Below, piece by piece: positions 55,000 to 63,799 of a DNA stretch of 64,000 nt (position 1 is the stretch's first letter; each line of letters starts with the position of its first letter). Below the pieces are notes generated by a model. It searched no databases, was not told the origin of the DNA, and worked only from the letters and a program-made list of their open reading frames with translations. Source of the stretch: Myxococcales bacterium (GTDB taxonomy: Bacteria > Myxococcota_A > UBA9042 > JABWCM01 > BTVJ01). The DNA is taken from the NCBI GenBank assembly GCA_045863395.1, contig BTVJ01000015.1, positions 71,663-135,662 on the forward strand, written 5' to 3'. The position numbers and the translations under genes are program-made.

Positions 55000-55739
55000 C
55001 GATGCTCGACGCTCGCCGCCTGGTTCTGGTGATCGCCCTGCTCATCGGGGCCTGGATCTGGTCCACGGAGCTGTTCGCCATCGCGGCAGGAGTCGTGGTG
55101 ACCTGGCTCATCGTGCGCTGGAAGACCGCCCCCAAAGAAGAGGACCGCCGGCCGGTGGAGCCCGAGACCCTGGAGTCGGCGGCGCGGGACCTGCCCGTGG
55201 CGGCCATCCGAGGCGAGCAGGTGTGGACCGCCATCGACGAGCGGCCGGTCATGGTGACTCTGGAGCACGCCCGCTCCCGGTCCATGGGGGAGCTGCCGGT
55301 GATCCGCCTGGAGGTGCGCATGGGGCCGCCCATCCAGTACTGCTTCATCGTGCGGCGGCGCATGAGCCTCTTCCCCATGCCGGTGCTGGTCTGGAACACG
55401 CTGATTCCCCGCGCCTCCTTCGAGTACGAGCTGCGCCGCGTCGAGCTGGACGCGGATCTCCAGCAGCGCTTCGAGGCCGCCTCCAACGCGCCGCGCCTCA
55501 CGCAGCGCCTCTGGGAGTCGCGGCTCCGGCAGGCGCTGGACGGGCAGCTCGATCCCTCCCAGCTCCGCCTGGAGGAGCTGGCGTTCAACGGGGAGAGCCT
55601 CATCCTCGTCTACATGCCCGCCTGGCCCCTGGAGCCAGACCCGAGGCTCCCGTTCGTCCTCGACGAGGCGGGCCCGGCGGTGGAGGCCCTGGACGCCTTC
55701 ATCCGCGAAGAGGCCCTCCGAGACGCGACGCCTGCTTGA
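54996..55739 (+). CDS. Hypothetical membrane protein
   Basis: GTGA overlap with previous gene; N-terminal TM hairpin; codon bias. Confidence 0.7.
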   Translation: MTMLDARRLVLVIALLIGAWIWSTELFAIAAGVVVTWLIVRWKTAPKEEDRRPVEPETLESAARDLPVAAIRGEQVWTAIDERPVMVTLEHARSRSMGELPVIRLEVRMGPPIQYCFIVRRRMSLFPMPVLVWNTLIPRASFEYELRRVELDADLQQRFEAASNAPRLTQRLWESRLRQALDGQLDPSQLRLEELAFNGESLILVYMPAWPLEPDPRLPFVLDEAGPAVEALDAFIREEALRDATPA

Positions 55740-56535: not shown

Positions 56536-56769
56536 TCAACAAGACCCTGGCAACGGGACCTCGATCTCCTCAGACCGCCATGCCGCGTACGATAGCGCTG
56601 CCCGGATGTCTGCTTCATCCAGGTACGGGTAGGCAGCGAGGAACTCCTGAGTGGAGTGCCCGGCGGCGAGCAAACCGATGATCGTTCCTAGCGTGACGCG
56701 CATGCCACGAATGCACGGCTTCCCTCCCATCACCAGCGGATCGAACGTTATCCTCTCCAGCAGGTTCAC
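56536..56769 (-). CDS. DUF433 protein (VapB45-like antitoxin)
   Basis: GGAGGT RBS; RITFDP.VMGGKPCIRGMRV, YPYL..DIRAALSYA. Confidence 0.92.
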   Translation of the reverse strand: MNLLERITFDPLVMGGKPCIRGMRVTLGTIIGLLAAGHSTQEFLAAYPYLDEADIRAALSYAAWRSEEIEVPLPGSC

Positions 56770-56873
56770 GACGTCACCTCCAAGCTCCCACGCGCTTCGC
56801 GCTCCCGCCCTCAGGCTACCAGGAACTTCACGCATCTGGCGGGGCTGTCCCAGCGGCATTTACCGGCAGGTCG

Positions 56874-58382
56874 TCAGGGCGGGAGGTCCGAGGGGTCGTC
56901 GCAGTGGATGGTCGGGAGATAGGTGCTGGCCGCGAGGCGGAATCCGTGGACTGCGGCGCGGATGCAGAAGTGGCGGTCCTCTCCTACGATCTCCGCTGGC
57001 AGATTGTGGATGGGGTCGTAGGTGACTCCGGCGTCCGCGACCGCCCGTCGGATGAGGGTCACCGCGCCCAGACCGCCCACGGGCCGCACACCGGGACGCT
57101 CGATGAGGTCGGCGATGAAGTCTTCGCTCAGGTCGTACTGGCCCCGCTCCCAGACCTGGGGCCACTTGCCGGCCCGGACCTCTGAGAGGGCGCGCGCCAC
57201 GTCCCTGCGAAGCGGAGTCCCGTCGGGGATGCGGAGGATCGGTCCACCGGTCTGCAGGTCCCACCGCGCCCAGAAGACGGGGCTGACCACGTCCTCGCCC
57301 GTCGCGAGCAGGTGGCCGGGTGTCCGAGGGTCCATGAGGACATCCGAGTCCAGCGCGAGCAGCGCGTCGGCGCCGCTGGCCTGGAGTCGTCGCAGCATGT
57401 CGTTGCGCAGGCGGGTCATGCGGCGGAGCGGCCCCTCCGGGTCGTGCGGCGGCCCCCACCAGCGGTTTCCGCCTGCCGCAACCGGATCCGGGAGTGAGAC
57501 GGTCTCCACGCGGACGTTTCGGTGGCTACGGGAGGCCCACTCCCCGAGGAGCGCTGCCGTCTCGTCGGTGGAGTCGTTCACGAGGAGCTGGATCTCGACG
57601 CGGGCGGGGTCCATGTGCAGCGCGTCCAGAGAGGCGGTCAGATGGGGGACCATCCACGCGCGATTGCGGATGGGGATGCAGAGCAGGATGTCTGCGGGAG
57701 CGAGCGCGGATGCCAGGGGTCGTAGAGTGGGCGGGCTGAGGATGGTGTGCGCGTGCGCGAGATTCACGCCGGTGTTTCGGGCCAGGTAGTGCTCGGCCTT
57801 CTGCGCCCGCAGCTCCTGGCGACCGTAGGCGAGGTGGAGCACGGGCGGGTCAAGGGGCTCCGGGACGAGGTCTGCTGCGTACTCGGGCAGGCGCGATGCG
57901 TGGAAGGTGGGCCCGGCATCCGGGCGCGCCGCGAATGGAACATCGCGAAAGCGTACGAAGAACGTCAGCCAGGGAGACCACCAACCGTCGAGCCGCCAAT
58001 GCGAGTCGTCCCACAGCTCCAGGAGCTTGGCGTCGAGGCGCTCCACCGAGACGGGCAGACCACGTAGCCGAGATGCGGACAACGTGGCGCTCGGCACCTC
58101 GTCCGCGTCGAAGAGGGCCACCCAATCATCGTGCTTCGCCACCTCGCGAACCGCCTCCCAGAGCCGAGCGCGAGCGAGCGTCTCGTGGACGAGAAGCATG
58201 GGGGTGTCGCTTCGGTGGAGGACGACCCTCGGGCCGTGCCGGCGGAGCACGTCGGGGGACCCGTCGTCGCTCGCGTCATCGGGAACCACGAGCACGTCGA
58301 CCAGGGCGAGCATCGCCTGCGCCCATCGCTCCAGCCACCTGCTGCGCTCGTTCCTCAAGATGGTGGCCCCTATGATCTTCAT
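56874..58382 (-). CDS. Two-domain GT-A (family 2) glycosyltransferase
   Basis: Domain 1: RNE, DDASDD, FDADE, HLAYG. Domain 2: PIRNR, NDSTD, LDSD, VGGLGA.TLI, GEDRHFCIRA. Confidence 0.88.
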   Translation of the reverse strand: MKIIGATILRNERSRWLERWAQAMLALVDVLVVPDDASDDGSPDVLRRHGPRVVLHRSDTPMLLVHETLARARLWEAVREVAKHDDWVALFDADEVPSATLSASRLRGLPVSVERLDAKLLELWDDSHWRLDGWWSPWLTFFVRFRDVPFAARPDAGPTFHASRLPEYAADLVPEPLDPPVLHLAYGRQELRAQKAEHYLARNTGVNLAHAHTILSPPTLRPLASALAPADILLCIPIRNRAWMVPHLTASLDALHMDPARVEIQLLVNDSTDETAALLGEWASRSHRNVRVETVSLPDPVAAGGNRWWGPPHDPEGPLRRMTRLRNDMLRRLQASGADALLALDSDVLMDPRTPGHLLATGEDVVSPVFWARWDLQTGGPILRIPDGTPLRRDVARALSEVRAGKWPQVWERGQYDLSEDFIADLIERPGVRPVGGLGAVTLIRRAVADAGVTYDPIHNLPAEIVGEDRHFCIRAAVHGFRLAASTYLPTIHCDDPSDLPP

Positions 58383-58710: not shown

Positions 58711-59721
58711 ATGCTGTTGAGCGTGTGCATGATCGCGCGGGACGAGTCGCGCTGCATCGGAGACGCGATTCGAAGTGCCAGGTCCCTGGCCGACGAGGTC
58801 ATCGTCGTCGACACCGGCTCACGGGACACGACGCCCCACGTCGCGAGCCAGCTCGGCGCCCGCGTACTCCACCAGCCGTGGCAGGACGACTTCTCCCTCC
58901 ACCGGAACCATGCAATCGACCAGGCCCTCGGGCGCTGGGTGCTCATCCTGGACGCGGACGAGGTCATCGAGCCCGCCGACTTCGGCGAGACGCGGTCGCG
59001 ACTGGCCGGCGACGGGCTCCCGGACATCCTCATGGTGAAGCACTGGTCCACGTATCCCGGCGGCGACTCGGTCCTCGAGTATCTGGCCCGCATCGTCCGG
59101 CGCGACAGCGGCATCCGATACGTCCACCCCATCCACGAGCAGTTGAAGGTCCGCGGGGAGGAGGCCCTGCTCAGCAACCTCGTCCTGCGACACAGCGGGT
59201 ATACGGGAGCGGAGCGCCTGCGCCAGAAGCACGAGCGCAACCTGCGCATCGCGCAGATGATGCCCGACGACGAGCCCCACGCGCACCACTGCCGCATGCG
59301 GAGCCTCGCAGCGCTGGGTCGTTGGGACGAGGCGGCCCGCGCCGCGGACGCCCTGCTGGCCCTGCACGGCGTCGCGGACCCCGTGAGGTCCGATGCCCAC
59401 GTGCTGGCGGCGGCCGCGCGGCTGGAGGCGGCCCGCCGCGGCTAGCCGAACGGAGACTTCCGCGAGCACCTCGGTGCGGCCCGTGCCCTCGACCCCCTGG
59501 CGCCGGATGTCCCCTATCTGGAGATGTTCGCGTCGGCGCTCGACTACCTGAAGGCGCTCGACCGAGCCAACACACCGGGCACGGCGGAGTTCCTGCGCAT
59601 CGGGCACTTCTAGCGCGCGGGGTCGAGCGTCGAGGAGCTCGTGCGGACCATGACGGGAGAGACCCTCGACGCCCTCTCGCGGCGCGGGCAGGTGCGCCGG
59701 AGCAAGAGCGACGAGAAGTGA
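58711..59721 (+). pseudogene. GT2 glycosyltransferase with TPR-like tail; catalytic ORF 58711..59445 intact, tail broken by two in-frame TAGs
   Basis: LSVCMIARDE, VVDTGS.D.T, WQDDFS..RN, LDADE, IHE, H.GY; frame continues after TAG 59443 and TAG 59611 to TGA 59719. Confidence 0.7.
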
Positions 59722-59806
59722 CCGCGCGGAGAATCCGACACCGCCTCTGCCGGAGACCCCAGCGCCAAGTGTTGAGTGACCCGCAGATACAGGAGGAGCA
59801 GACCCC

Positions 59807-60163
59807 ATGGCAGCAGTGATTGAGCTGGCCCCCTGGACGACGTTGAGCGGCTCGGGCAGCGTGACGTTGACGCAGGCGCCGGGAGAGTGGGTGGACGTCT
59901 CCGAGCACGCCGACGGGATGTTCCTGCTGGACGTGAAGGACATCACCGTCTCCGTTCGCATCTACGTCGACACGAGCCCGAGCGACGACGACGGCTATTT
60001 CACGCCGCTGTTCGACTACGTGGCGACCACCGGCGCGACCCTGCGGATCAGCCGCTTCGCCGACGCGGCCACGCCGCTGATGCGCTACGTCCGGTGGAGG
60101 CTCGCCTCGGGCACCAACTGGGCCGTGACCTTCAGGATCTCCGCCGTCCTGAAGACCCTCTAG
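59807..60163 (+). CDS. Small beta-rich protein, paralog type A1
   Basis: AGGAGG RBS; ELAPW..LSG..Q..EW.D..TPLMRYVRW..W..FRI. Confidence 0.88.
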   Translation: MAAVIELAPWTTLSGSGSVTLTQAPGEWVDVSEHADGMFLLDVKDITVSVRIYVDTSPSDDDGYFTPLFDYVATTGATLRISRFADAATPLMRYVRWRLASGTNWAVTFRISAVLKTL

Positions 60164-60178
60164 CCCACGGAGGACACC

Positions 60179-60589
60179 ATGGCCTGCACATGTGACAGCC
60201 GGGGCGGATTCCACCTGAGCGCGCGCGACACGCCGGGCGAGCTGCTCCCCTGGTCGCGACTCGGGGGCAGCACCGCAGCGACGACCATCACCCAGCCCGC
60301 AGAGCAGTGGCTCGACGCCGGCATGTTCCGGCACGCCCTGCTCTGCCTCGACGTCCGGGCGTACTCCGGCGACGTCCACCTCTTCATCCAGACGGCGCAG
60401 GTCGACGAGGAGGACGCCTTCGTGACCATCGTCGACCACCAGCCGGCGGCGACCGGCAGGACCTGGTTCAAGGTAGAGGCCACGGCCACCACGCCGCTGC
60501 TCCGCTTCGTCCGCTGGAAGGTGGGTGCGGGCAGCGGGCCCTGGAGCCTCTTTGCCCGCGTCGCAGCCACCTTCAAGTCGGCTGCCTGA
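60179..60589 (+). CDS. Small beta-rich protein, paralog type B1 (N-terminal CxC)
   Basis: GGAGG RBS; MACTCD..PGELLPW..TPLLRFVRWK. Confidence 0.88.
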   Translation: MACTCDSRGGFHLSARDTPGELLPWSRLGGSTAATTITQPAEQWLDAGMFRHALLCLDVRAYSGDVHLFIQTAQVDEEDAFVTIVDHQPAATGRTWFKVEATATTPLLRFVRWKVGAGSGPWSLFARVAATFKSAA

Positions 60590-60635
60590 ACGTGTACACT
60601 GAGCACCGGCCCCCGGCGCCGGAGGAGAGACGACC

Positions 60636-60995
60636 ATGAGAGGTGTCATCGAGCTCGCCCCCTGGACCAACCTGAGCGGCGGCGCCAGCCAGGACTTCAT
60701 CCAGCCGCAGCGGGAGTGGCCCGACATCGGCTCCTTCGCTGACGGCACCATCTTCGTCGACATCAAGGACCGGGGCGGCGCCCCGACGCTCCACCTCCAG
60801 ACTGCCATCGTGGAGGAGGACGCCTACTTCGTGGACTTCACCGGCGGCATCGCCACCACCGGCACCACGCTGCTCGTGAGCCGCTTCGCCACGGCGACGA
60901 CGCCCATGATGCGTTACCTGCGGTGGAAGGTGGAGGCCGGCGCCTCCGCATGGAATCTGACGTTCCGCATTCTGGCGGTGCTGAAGCACGGCTGA
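60636..60995 (+). CDS. Small beta-rich protein, paralog type A2
   Basis: GGAGG RBS; VIELAPW..TPMMRYLRWK..TFRI. Confidence 0.88.
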   Translation: MRGVIELAPWTNLSGGASQDFIQPQREWPDIGSFADGTIFVDIKDRGGAPTLHLQTAIVEEDAYFVDFTGGIATTGTTLLVSRFATATTPMMRYLRWKVEAGASAWNLTFRILAVLKHG

Positions 60996-61007
60996 GGAGG
61001 TGCCCCC

Positions 61008-61424
61008 ATGCCATGCGACTGCCCGAGCAGTGGAGCCCCGAGGGTCCGGGAAGACGCTCGCCCCGGCGAGCTGTGCCCCTGGACCCGCCTGCAAGGCTCG
61101 ACAGGGACCACCGTCGTCACCCAGCCGTCGGCCGAGTGGGTCGACGCCAAGGACTTCATCGGCGCCCTCGTCGGCATCGACGTCCGCGACTACAGCAGCG
61201 ACGTCCGCATCTACGTCCAGACCTCGAATACCCTGGACGACGCCTCCTTCGTCGACTTGATCAACCACCGCCCCACGGTGGCAGGCAGGAAGTACTTCAA
61301 GCTCCTCCCGACAGACACGACGCCGCTCCTCCGCTACGTCCGCTGGAAGGCCGGCAACGCCACCGCGGCCTGGAGGGCCCAGTTCCGCATCGTCGCCAAC
61401 TTCAAGAGCCGTGATGGGCGGTAG
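61008..61424 (+). CDS. Small beta-rich protein, paralog type B2 (N-terminal CxC)
   Basis: GAGGAGG RBS; MPCDCP..PGELCPW..TPLLRYVRWK. Confidence 0.88.
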   Translation: MPCDCPSSGAPRVREDARPGELCPWTRLQGSTGTTVVTQPSAEWVDAKDFIGALVGIDVRDYSSDVRIYVQTSNTLDDASFVDLINHRPTVAGRKYFKLLPTDTTPLLRYVRWKAGNATAAWRAQFRIVANFKSRDGR

Positions 61425-61698: not shown

Positions 61699-62109
61699 AT
61701 GACGCGGCACCCGACGACTATCGAGCCCTTGAGTGCCGACGGCCACGGGCTCGGCAAACCTCCAGAGAACGAGCCTCGGGAAGATTCGCCGAATTTGGTG
61801 GACGGGTCCACGCAGGGAGTCCAGCTTCATAGACAACCCCTGGGCATTGACGTTGCCGACGTTCAAGACAGCGCGCAAGATCCACCGTACCCAACGCCTA
61901 CGTTCGCCGATCTCCTTGGGACCGGTGCCTTGGCAATGGTGCTGAGACAGGCACGGCAGGGACAGTTTGATCACATGCTCACTCCATCCGTGTTGGAGCG
62001 TCTGGAACGATCTGGAGCCGCCAAGCATGGCCAAGTACGTTGGGAGTTCGCCAACTCGGACGATGCCCTGGCGATGCTGGCATGGCTCACCGATAGATTC
62101 GAGGCCTGA
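61699..62109 (+). CDS. Hypothetical protein (lower GC)
   Basis: 136-aa ORF ending 2 nt before the next ATG; no recognised motif. Confidence 0.4.
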   Translation: MTRHPTTIEPLSADGHGLGKPPENEPREDSPNLVDGSTQGVQLHRQPLGIDVADVQDSAQDPPYPTPTFADLLGTGALAMVLRQARQGQFDHMLTPSVLERLERSGAAKHGQVRWEFANSDDALAMLAWLTDRFEA

Positions 62110-62111
62110 CC

Positions 62112-63116
62112 ATGAGTCCATGTGAGAAGTTCGTGCTGTCCGGTGGGTTCACCAAGGCTTCGAATCTTGGTCTGTTCCTGGATTGCATACTGTTCTCCAT
62201 GGGCAAAGGAGCCACATCCAGCGGACCAGGAGCCCTGATTGGCGCGGTGTTCTTCTTCATCATCGTACACCATGCTTACAAGCAGGCCCCTGCGGTTTGG
62301 ATGTGGGACGATAACAAGGCGCCGCAGGTGCCGGGGAAGTTTCTGGCGACACAAGTGCTTGCGGATCCCAAGCCCTATCTCGCTTGGGCAAAGAAGCGCG
62401 GAGTTTTGCATACTTGGATAGACCCGATCAGCGCAATAGTCAGTCCGACACCCAAAGCAGTTGCAGACCTCTCGAACTTTTTGACTCTTTCCAGGAAGCA
62501 GGGCCTGACGACGCAGTTTCTGTTTGCCTCTACAGGCAGTTCGGACCCAGCGGGCACAGGTTCCAACGAACTCGACGCCATTTTCGGCTTGCTCAAGCAG
62601 ATCGACAAGAAATTTTGGCCATCGGCCGTTCAGACAAACATTGAGGGCTTGGGTGGTGGCGTTGATGCGACCAAACAATACAATGCCCACAAGGCGTTCA
62701 AGGCAAAGGTCGACTCGTTCAACTTGAAGAACGGCACCCAGCTTGGACTTGCGGCGTCCGTAGGCTTCTGGTGGCTCAAGTTCGAAGCTGGCGGCGACCC
62801 ACCGAAGGTCGGCGGAAAGGACTACGGTCTTGCGTTGTTGGAACTCGGCTTCGACGTCACAGTCCAAGTCTATCGCAAACCGGAGTGGACCATCAAGCCC
62901 GCGGAGAAATGGTCTGATGTTGCAGGGGATTTCGGCCGCCAGGCGTGGATTGGTCTGTTGGTGGGGCCCAAGGAGACCGGGTCGTACGACTATTCGGACA
63001 AAATCGAGGCGCTCGGCGGAGCATTCGCGGACGTAGTCGACGCGTGTATCAACAAGCCTGGTTTTGCAGGAGTGGCCGCCCACGACACATATTACTGGCA
63101 AAAGGCCGCCCCATGA
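62112..63116 (+). CDS. Putative TIM-barrel glycoside-hydrolase-like protein (lower GC)
   Basis: AVWMW, KKRGV, TNIEG, VGFWW, VQVYR, WIGL, FAGVAAHDTYYW pattern; start uncertain. Confidence 0.55.
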   Translation: MSPCEKFVLSGGFTKASNLGLFLDCILFSMGKGATSSGPGALIGAVFFFIIVHHAYKQAPAVWMWDDNKAPQVPGKFLATQVLADPKPYLAWAKKRGVLHTWIDPISAIVSPTPKAVADLSNFLTLSRKQGLTTQFLFASTGSSDPAGTGSNELDAIFGLLKQIDKKFWPSAVQTNIEGLGGGVDATKQYNAHKAFKAKVDSFNLKNGTQLGLAASVGFWWLKFEAGGDPPKVGGKDYGLALLELGFDVTVQVYRKPEWTIKPAEKWSDVAGDFGRQAWIGLLVGPKETGSYDYSDKIEALGGAFADVVDACINKPGFAGVAAHDTYYWQKAAP

Positions 63117-63151: not shown

Positions 63152-63799
63152 ATGCTGAAGGATTACCGGGAGCAACCGTGTGGCGCGAGACTTGGTGCCT
63201 CGCTTCTTGTGCTCATTCTCACTGCTTGCTCGGCCAGTCAAACGTCCCCCGCCGCGGCTGGAGCAAGCTTGGATATTGTGGACGCGGACTCTCCAGACAA
63301 TGAAGACATCGCCTCGTCGGACGCGGCCGAAGTCATCTCGGACGTAGGCTCCATCGACGACAGCCCCGTTGCACCTTGCGGCGCCGATGAGTGCATCGGA
63401 TCGTGCCGCGGGTGCCCCGCCGGGGAGGCGTGCTCCCCAACCGGCCGGTGCGATCCGCAATGTGCGCCCTTCTGTAGCGACCGAGCGTGTGGCTCCGACG
63501 GTTGTGGCGGCGAGTGTGGCAAGTGTGGGTCTGGAGAGACGTGCACCCCGTCCGGCCGGTGCGAACCGGAGTGCACTCCGTCCTGCAATGGCGAGACTTG
63601 TCGGTCCGACGGTTGCGGCGGCGAGTGTCAATGCCCAGCCGGCTGGGCCTGCAATGCAAATGGAGTTTGTGCGCTGTGGTGCTGGCCGACATGCAATGAC
63701 AAGGAGTGCGGATACAACGGATGCGGGATTGAGTGCGGATTGTGCGACGAGGGGGAGGTCTGCACCGAAGCTGGGATGTGCGAGCCGGAGGTGCCGTGA
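63152..63799 (+). CDS. Cys-rich repeat lipoprotein (C.P.C....CG.DGCGG.C repeats), possibly truncated
   Basis: GGAGG RBS; lipobox LTAC; three full repeats; the repeat continues past the TGA. Confidence 0.8.
   Translation: MLKDYREQPCGARLGASLLVLILTACSASQTSPAAAGASLDIVDADSPDNEDIASSDAAEVISDVGSIDDSPVAPCGADECIGSCRGCPAGEACSPTGRCDPQCAPFCSDRACGSDGCGGECGKCGSGETCTPSGRCEPECTPSCNGETCRSDGCGGECQCPAGWACNANGVCALWCWPTCNDKECGYNGCGIECGLCDEGEVCTEAGMCEPEVP

Follow-up and report, generated by a model that had tools for sequence, protein, structure and literature searches.

In the 64,000-nucleotide stretch of DNA analysed here (the window), positions 59807 to 61424 are filled by four open reading frames on the + strand, A1, B1, A2, and B2. 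A1 (59807..60163) encodes a single jelly-roll protein of 118 aa that has neither cysteine nor a signal peptide, and A2 (60636..60995) encodes a second class A protein, of 119 aa. Alternating with them are the class B genes B1 (60179..60589; 136 aa) and B2 (61008..61424; 138 aa), whose products begin with a CxC-containing extension that is ca. 15 to 20 residues long in B1. All four are genuine genes. Each is preceded by a GGAG(G) ribosome-binding motif, and their GC3 values (0.91 to 0.95) are host-like. Comparison with four other runs gave 9 synonymous and 3 nonsynonymous differences among the 40 of 66 rows listed, and such mostly silent variation is expected of selected genes. Metagenomes from sludge, wastewater, and bioreactors contain the stretch. 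An RNA-library contig (run X6), from one study only, covers positions 59792 to 61406, almost exactly the array; its level and strand are unreadable, and it may derive from DNA. No sigma-70 promoter, terminator-like site, or regulatory repeat was found between positions 58300 and 62200.

An earlier note on this DNA had proposed that the four genes form a paralogous family with a shared Trp/Arg signature. The family relationship was confirmed by BLASTP, in which A1 and A2 were 47% identical, B1 and B2 were 45.5% identical, and the cross pairs were 33 to 40% identical (E values of 1e-19 to 1e-46), and by an alignment with 21 invariant columns, the start methionine among them. The submotifs that had been named agreed with the genes in 10 of 10 checks; however, the full signature, written as a strict regular expression with tight gap settings, matched one gene of the four. 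Departures from it include IQ for TQ in A2 and FAR for FR in B1. In keeping with the note, Pfam, NCBIfam, and PDB sequence searches led to no enzyme family, and these searches, together with PADLOC, provided no family name for the four proteins.

Gene history and range of the family

Phylogenetic analysis separated A1 and A2 from B1 and B2, with support of 100/97 in one tree and 99/95 in a second, in agreement with the proposed A/B split. The accompanying proposal, a nested duplication of the AB pair, fared differently as a lineage-specific event. Once relatives were added, the classes persisted but A1 and A2 were no longer sisters, nor were B1 and B2; both sisterhoods were rejected (AU p=2e-6 and p=0.006, respectively), and A1 clustered with a protein from elsewhere (98/96), in a tree built on 124 to 136 columns in which many deep forks are weak. 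The split between the pairs is therefore older than several of the sampled relatives, and the AB-AB order goes back either to an early duplication or to the joining of two AB cassettes.

A profile of the four proteins retrieved 815 family representatives (50% identity) at E values of ≤0.001 and 292 at 1e-10. Because those relatives that carry a name are MAGs of Myxococcales and Polyangiaceae, we assign the family to Myxococcota. Its spread among the searched genomes of this phylum is patchy: an 87-sequence family profile matched 26 of 401 phylum genomes, and a broader, 65-sequence profile matched 26 of 107 class genomes, the highest number of matches in a single genome being 23. A genome-contig scan that used the four-gene alignment gave no match, and a search for longer homologues yielded one protein out of a crowded candidate set.

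Four loci (three duplicates and one 1-kb fragment) were removed before domains were counted. Among the 66 that remained, 51 carry at least two jelly-roll domains (two domains at 17 loci, three at 25, and four to eight at 9), while 15 carry one, and the domains within each locus all lie on the same strand. In these arrays, some clades are tied to a gene position, and domains of different classes can be fused. In the triads of other families, each of the three gene positions has a clade of its own, although support is mixed, and neighbouring domains are sometimes fused through linkers of variable length. Fixed class positions and fusions suggest that the classes are nonredundant partners, and the A:B order is this lineage's form of a wider arrangement that includes fixed-position triads, longer arrays, fusions, and singletons. 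A reading of the tandem forms as double-jelly-roll capsid proteins was set aside, since linker lengths vary widely. A predicted A1:B1 complex scored 0.00, the proteins having been folded without alignments, which lowers the power of the prediction, and this score speaks neither for nor against a complex.

None of 196 proteins scored positive for an N-terminal signal in our own heuristic test; a member from a distant locus (L079) has a signal-like leader, as judged by eye. Serine and threonine make up 19% of the family (background, 10.6%), Trp residues are conserved, and cysteine is absent from 40 of 87 members. A LamG domain, which matches a virion structural PHROG, is present in 8 of 46 long forms, one of which passes the Pfam cut-off.

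Further traces of the family lie in the genome that carries the four genes (G000). A fifth member, which belongs to a third class, is represented at L096:2773-2889 by its 3' end, because contig C68 stops there; one more array may be missing from the assembly. A second, decayed locus (L095, on G000:C149, 123-3257) comprises a trypsin-like ORF, a lipoprotein gene, a fused A/B remnant, a gene for a GT2 glycosyltransferase that is an intact paralogue (67% identity), and after it a gene for a 1,231-aa protein that has no family. An eroded part-copy of B2 (L098, G000:C24, ca. 55300 to 55730) was seen by eye beside nucleotidyltransferase-type genes that are toxin-antitoxin-like. In another genome, G289, the class A gene has a premature stop inside the conserved RW motif (L054:1609-1944). 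IS66-like genes were observed by eye inside or beside the arrays at L063, L068, L054, L056, and L115, and ECF or sigma-54 regulators lie upstream of several other arrays.

Fold and phage connection

The AlphaFold model is a ten-strand, all-beta jelly-roll sandwich (pLDDT of 84.6), and this model and the structure search agree with the single jelly-roll or beta-sandwich fold that had been suggested. Ranking with VIA-align over 48,161 chains placed XepA first (Z of 10.1 to 10.3, rmsd of 2.9, 106 aligned residues), with the match falling on its N-terminal domain, followed by BPP-1 cement (Z of 9.8), the Carin1 capsid chain (9.5), PNGase F (9.3), YomS (9.1), Ena2A (9.0), and PirA (8.8); these top values are near ties. 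Most of the top matches are subunits of virions or of other self-assembling oligomers, which favours a role as a scaffold. On the other side, the best Z values are only 1 to 2 above those of PNGase F and the carbohydrate-binding modules CBM36, CBM86, and a porphyran CBM (8.5 to 8.7), and a shared fold alone shows no function; both points count against that role.

Phage proteins came closer: those in BFVD matched the model with TM scores of 0.70 to 0.75, and Atlas clusters that are 61 to 89% viral matched it with scores of 0.89 to 0.91. Viral taxa make up 79 to 92% of the nearest Atlas clusters. DUF6385 is a neighbour of the family in the Atlas, and PMC13700489 refers to it as a single jelly roll within a protein of an archaeal virus. 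One of the BFVD matches is a 115-aa protein of phage PPpW-3, which we equate with ORF-7 (115 aa), located two genes after the major capsid gene. The family profile found ORF-7 with an E value of 0.006, and hhalign with the broad profile gave a probability of 59% (E value of 9e-5). ORF-7 belongs to phrog_5707 (E value of 1e-34), a phage head-module family that was weakly matched by 3 of 87 members (best E value, 6e-4), although not by A1 itself; one member of the 87 matched Bbp16 (E value of 0.005). It is likely that the family descends, remotely, from a jelly roll of a phage head module.

The proteins share with phage cement (BPP-1 Bbp16, KHP40 cement, and the Carin1 capsid chain; Z of 8.4 to 9.8) a single jelly roll of ca. 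120 aa, in addition to the weak profile similarity to the head-module gene. The cement protein of BPP-1 is a jelly roll that is needed for phage production (PMC3863775). Unlike cement genes, however, the genes described here form chromosomal, multiparalogue arrays that have no capsid genes among the scanned neighbours and are tied to glycosyltransferases and variable enzymes. A second likeness is to Ena pili (Ena1A/B/C; Z of 8.4 to 9.1), whose jelly-roll subunits also come from a small paralogue cluster, and the Cys-bearing N-terminal extension of class B is of similar length; CxC is present in 6 of 9 class B proteins and in none of 10 class A proteins. The connector-to-core disulfide scheme of Ena, as described in bioRxiv 10.1101/2020.08.21.260141, is unavailable to the family because the core Cys acceptors are missing: A1 and A2 have no cysteine, and the core cysteines of class B are at differing positions and not conserved. 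The family is therefore not an Ena, and Pfam-type scans of the window proteins and family members gave no match to DUF3992 (Ena). The likeness to PirA of the PirA/PirB binary toxin is one of fold only, and a PirB-type partner is absent downstream, where the first gene product has no family and the second is a TIM barrel.

Taken as a whole, the family and its gene module are real and previously undescribed; the fold is a known one, and we deduce the function from fold and context only. A literature search, whose coverage excluded most subscription papers, found no earlier description of either.

Glycosyltransferases, downstream DNA, and export

Immediately upstream of A1 lies a gene for a GT2 glycosyltransferase of the GmaR/SunS type with a helical, TPR-like tail (58711..59721, + strand). 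Its nearest solved relatives are GmaR (E value of 1e-24) and SunS; it scores far under the SunS family cut-off, however. GmaR transfers GlcNAc to flagellin (PMC9638930). In the assembly, the gene is interrupted by in-frame TAG codons at 59443-59445 and 59611-59613, which counts against a scaffold that depends on it. The first is a sense codon in all 4 other runs and the second in 2 of the 4, and these stops are therefore either strain-specific inactivation or assembly error. Farther upstream, a divergent protein of 502 aa with two GT2-like domains is encoded on the - strand (56874..58382), and by inspection a similar gene flanks the A/B pair of G289. An antitoxin-like DUF433 gene (56536-56859) stands at the left edge of this glycosyltransferase block.

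A glycosyltransferase of the GmaR/SunS type is encoded within 5 kb of 12 of the 66 loci, in 7 genomes, as detected with a profile that drew partly on the jelly-roll loci themselves. The other 54 loci have none within this distance, which speaks against a glycosylated scaffold, although many loci end at contig ends. The genome of the four genes has three enzymes of this class, two at jelly-roll loci and one at a flagellin locus (L099:1981-17475, on G000:C34), where nonulosonic-acid-type biosynthesis genes were also recognised by eye; this myxobacterium appears to be flagellated.

Downstream of B2, and again on the + strand, d1 (61699..62109; 136 aa) opens a variable cassette; it has a low GC3 (0.65) and encodes a Pro-rich protein without a family. 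The product of d2 (62112..63116; 334 aa) has N-terminal helices with a hydrophobic segment, followed by a glycoside hydrolase-like TIM barrel (pLDDT of 70.6) that resembles a GH5 mannanase (Z of 18.4) and Cwp19 (Z of 18.0), a cell wall protein with peptidoglycan hydrolase activity. The third gene, d3 (63152..63799), encodes a Cys-rich protein of 215 aa whose lipobox-like N terminus was noted by eye and missed by the automatic test.

The GC content falls downstream in 27 of 30 arrays (from 0.68 to 0.64), and most array neighbours match no family. Domains that were recognised downstream comprise S8 peptidase (two loci), GH113, GHL10 (weak), beta-lactamase-like, and lanthipeptide synthetase domains, beta-helix or tailspike-like proteins (four loci), and the surface proteins RCC1, FG-GAP, and FGE-sulfatase. 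At L118 and L119 (G415), two to four genes for beta-helix, tailspike-like proteins stand in a row behind the arrays; at L049 and L051 (G272), a jelly-roll pair is followed by a small gene, a fusion of GT2 and sulfotransferase, and two genes of ca. 260 aa that are related to each other and have no family; and at L041:7809-11087 a lanthipeptide synthetase (RamC/LanC/kinase) lies immediately behind the array.

The trio of d1, d2, and lipoprotein genes was also found in 2 of 400 other genomes, G052 and G074, in both cases without an adjacent array, which indicates that the cargo can travel independently of the array. G052 has the cassette but no detected family member, a finding that weighs against the scaffold; its cassette (L100:8100-11900) lies between two similar copies that resemble transposase remnants. 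In G074, the cassette sits behind a different beta-rich protein of 94 aa (L092:2516-2797) that has no family and did not align with the jelly-roll family; it could be an analogous module.

Family f6 is the richest in arrays, with 10 of its 13 genomes carrying them, and Hcp, FlhA/SctV, flagellin, and Pvc16 were each detected in 0 of these 13 genomes, which are incomplete drafts. Pvc16, the eCIS marker, was present in 79 of the 107 class genomes. Dependence of the arrays on type VI, type III, or eCIS machinery was accordingly not seen in f6. The genome of the four genes lacks Hcp and has FlhA, flagellin, and Pvc16. Neither an export signal nor a shared secretion system was found with the heuristic signal scan and marker profiles in these draft genomes, and this, too, counts against a scaffold.

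A putative display scaffold and its alternatives

We see about an even chance that the arrays encode a domesticated, phage-type heteromeric scaffold that is glycosylated in the cytoplasm and shows exchangeable glycan-binding or hydrolytic heads; the product would probably be a surface fibre or particle with a sugar coat, of a kind not described so far. From the fold, classes, arrays, and neighbours reported above, we infer the remaining steps. The four proteins would be subunits of a fibre, spike, or small particle and would derive from cement or decoration jelly rolls of phage capsids that were domesticated in Myxococcota. They would be synthesised in the cytoplasm, free of signal peptides, and would co-assemble, with two or three nonredundant classes filling different positions. 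Where it is present, the GmaR/SunS-type glycosyltransferase may put sugars on the Ser/Thr-rich subunits; Ser/Thr richness is common among beta proteins, however, which weakens its value as evidence. Variable heads would be displayed on the assembly, either as fusions (the LamG lectin) or as products of genes directly downstream (glycoside hydrolases, tailspike-like beta-helix proteins, and proteases), and would be exchanged by recombination. The assembly would then reach the outside, possibly via lysis, and may serve in adhesion to, or digestion of, prey and matrix glycans. Such a scaffold, which is read here from genes and models, would work like Ena pili or decorated virion fibres. The 15 of 66 loci with a single domain count against it.

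The downstream variability also invites an explanation in which the array is the carrier or export chaperone of a polymorphic toxin system, comparable to the WXG100 pairs of type VII secretion, with the first downstream gene encoding an antibacterial effector and the next a lipoprotein that confers immunity. We consider this unlikely. As in polymorphic toxin loci (Rhs/CDI orphans and SitAI), a conserved module at the front is followed by variable genes, and fragments and multiple copies occur; in the arrays, the downstream genes are low in GC and mostly without a signal-like N terminus, one genome has as many as 23 matches, and d2 resembles Cwp19. G140 has a second, orphan-like cassette that combines a jelly-roll fragment (3' part) with a paralogue of the cargo that shares its N terminus (84% over 209 aa). 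A lipoprotein start lay within 4 kb of 25 of 43 arrays, compared with 33% of 1,497 G000 genes and 21 of 72 control genes (a background of 29 to 33%); however, the enrichment failed on later, held-out loci, where the same test found a signal-less protein followed by a lipoprotein at 6 of 15. This test is noisy, related loci are not independent, and the counts omit loci with <2.5 kb downstream (7 in the first set and 5 held out). Moreover, most of the lipoproteins are either large propeller proteins or Cys-rich ones, and the SitA-SitI order of myxobacteria is the reverse of the order seen here. No nuclease, deaminase, or named toxin domain was found among the neighbours scanned (79 plus 41 against Pfam and 56 against NCBIfam), in which hydrolases were the only recognised domains relevant to toxins. 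No known delivery system accompanies the arrays, and the array-rich f6 genomes are without Hcp, FlhA/SctV, and Pvc16.

There is a small chance that the genes are left over from a prophage or virus, or act as decoys that disturb phage capsid assembly, as the phage-like fold, the largely viral Atlas clusters, and the toxin-antitoxin genes, IS66, and integrases near several arrays would suggest. However, no relative was found in 50,697 phage records or in IMG/VR (three strict pattern scans, which are weak evidence), and the scanned array neighbours include no terminase, portal, capsid, or other virion-assembly gene. No HK97-type capsid gene adjoins the arrays among the neighbours in the window or the scanned neighbours of relatives, and no viral contig was found. 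Codon use is host-like, strain variation is mostly silent, and 0 of 14 proteins matched PADLOC profiles of known anti-phage systems. We give a slightly lower probability to stand-alone glycan-binding modules whose paralogues widen ligand specificity without co-assembly. The fold similarity to CBM36, CBM86, and the porphyran CBM, the conserved Trp residues, and the glycan-related neighbour genes are consistent with such modules, but a CBM match in Pfam was obtained for only 1 of 87 members (E value of 0.019), the sequence link leads to a phage family, and a fixed class order is unexpected for independent lectins. The least probable explanation is that the proteins are XepA-like, oligomeric, membrane-damaging agents of lysis or killing. 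The N-terminal domain of XepA is the top fold match, and single and linker-joined double forms exist both here and in XepA/YomS of Bacillus subtilis prophages; XepA itself has two jelly rolls and forms pentamers, a layout that the linker-joined two-domain relatives echo. Against this explanation, single-domain YomS was not cytotoxic in the same source (PMC6834076). The narrower family profile gave a probability of 0.3% against a single YomS sequence, and the PDB sequence search gave no match. The arrays do not lie in a lysis cassette, and neither a holin nor an amidase was found among the scanned neighbours.

The preferred reading, a glycosylated display scaffold, has a more far-reaching form that we put forward tentatively, as possible but doubtful: a stand-alone, cement-derived nanodevice of two or three glycosylated classes that would bring interchangeable lectins, depolymerases, proteases, or toxins to prey or rivals without type III, type VI, or eCIS machinery. 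It is roughly as doubtful that the arrays are delivery or display devices of a new class. Since the proteins are small and signal-less, their assembly and glycosylation are directly testable in Escherichia coli.

Most of the phage parts that bacteria are known to have domesticated are tails or HK97 shells. If the scaffold reading is true, the use of a domesticated cement-type jelly roll as a multicopy, modular scaffold would be an added case of such domestication, and the arrays would offer a candidate means of prey attachment or digestion to predatory, as yet uncultured myxobacteria without type III, type VI, and eCIS markers.
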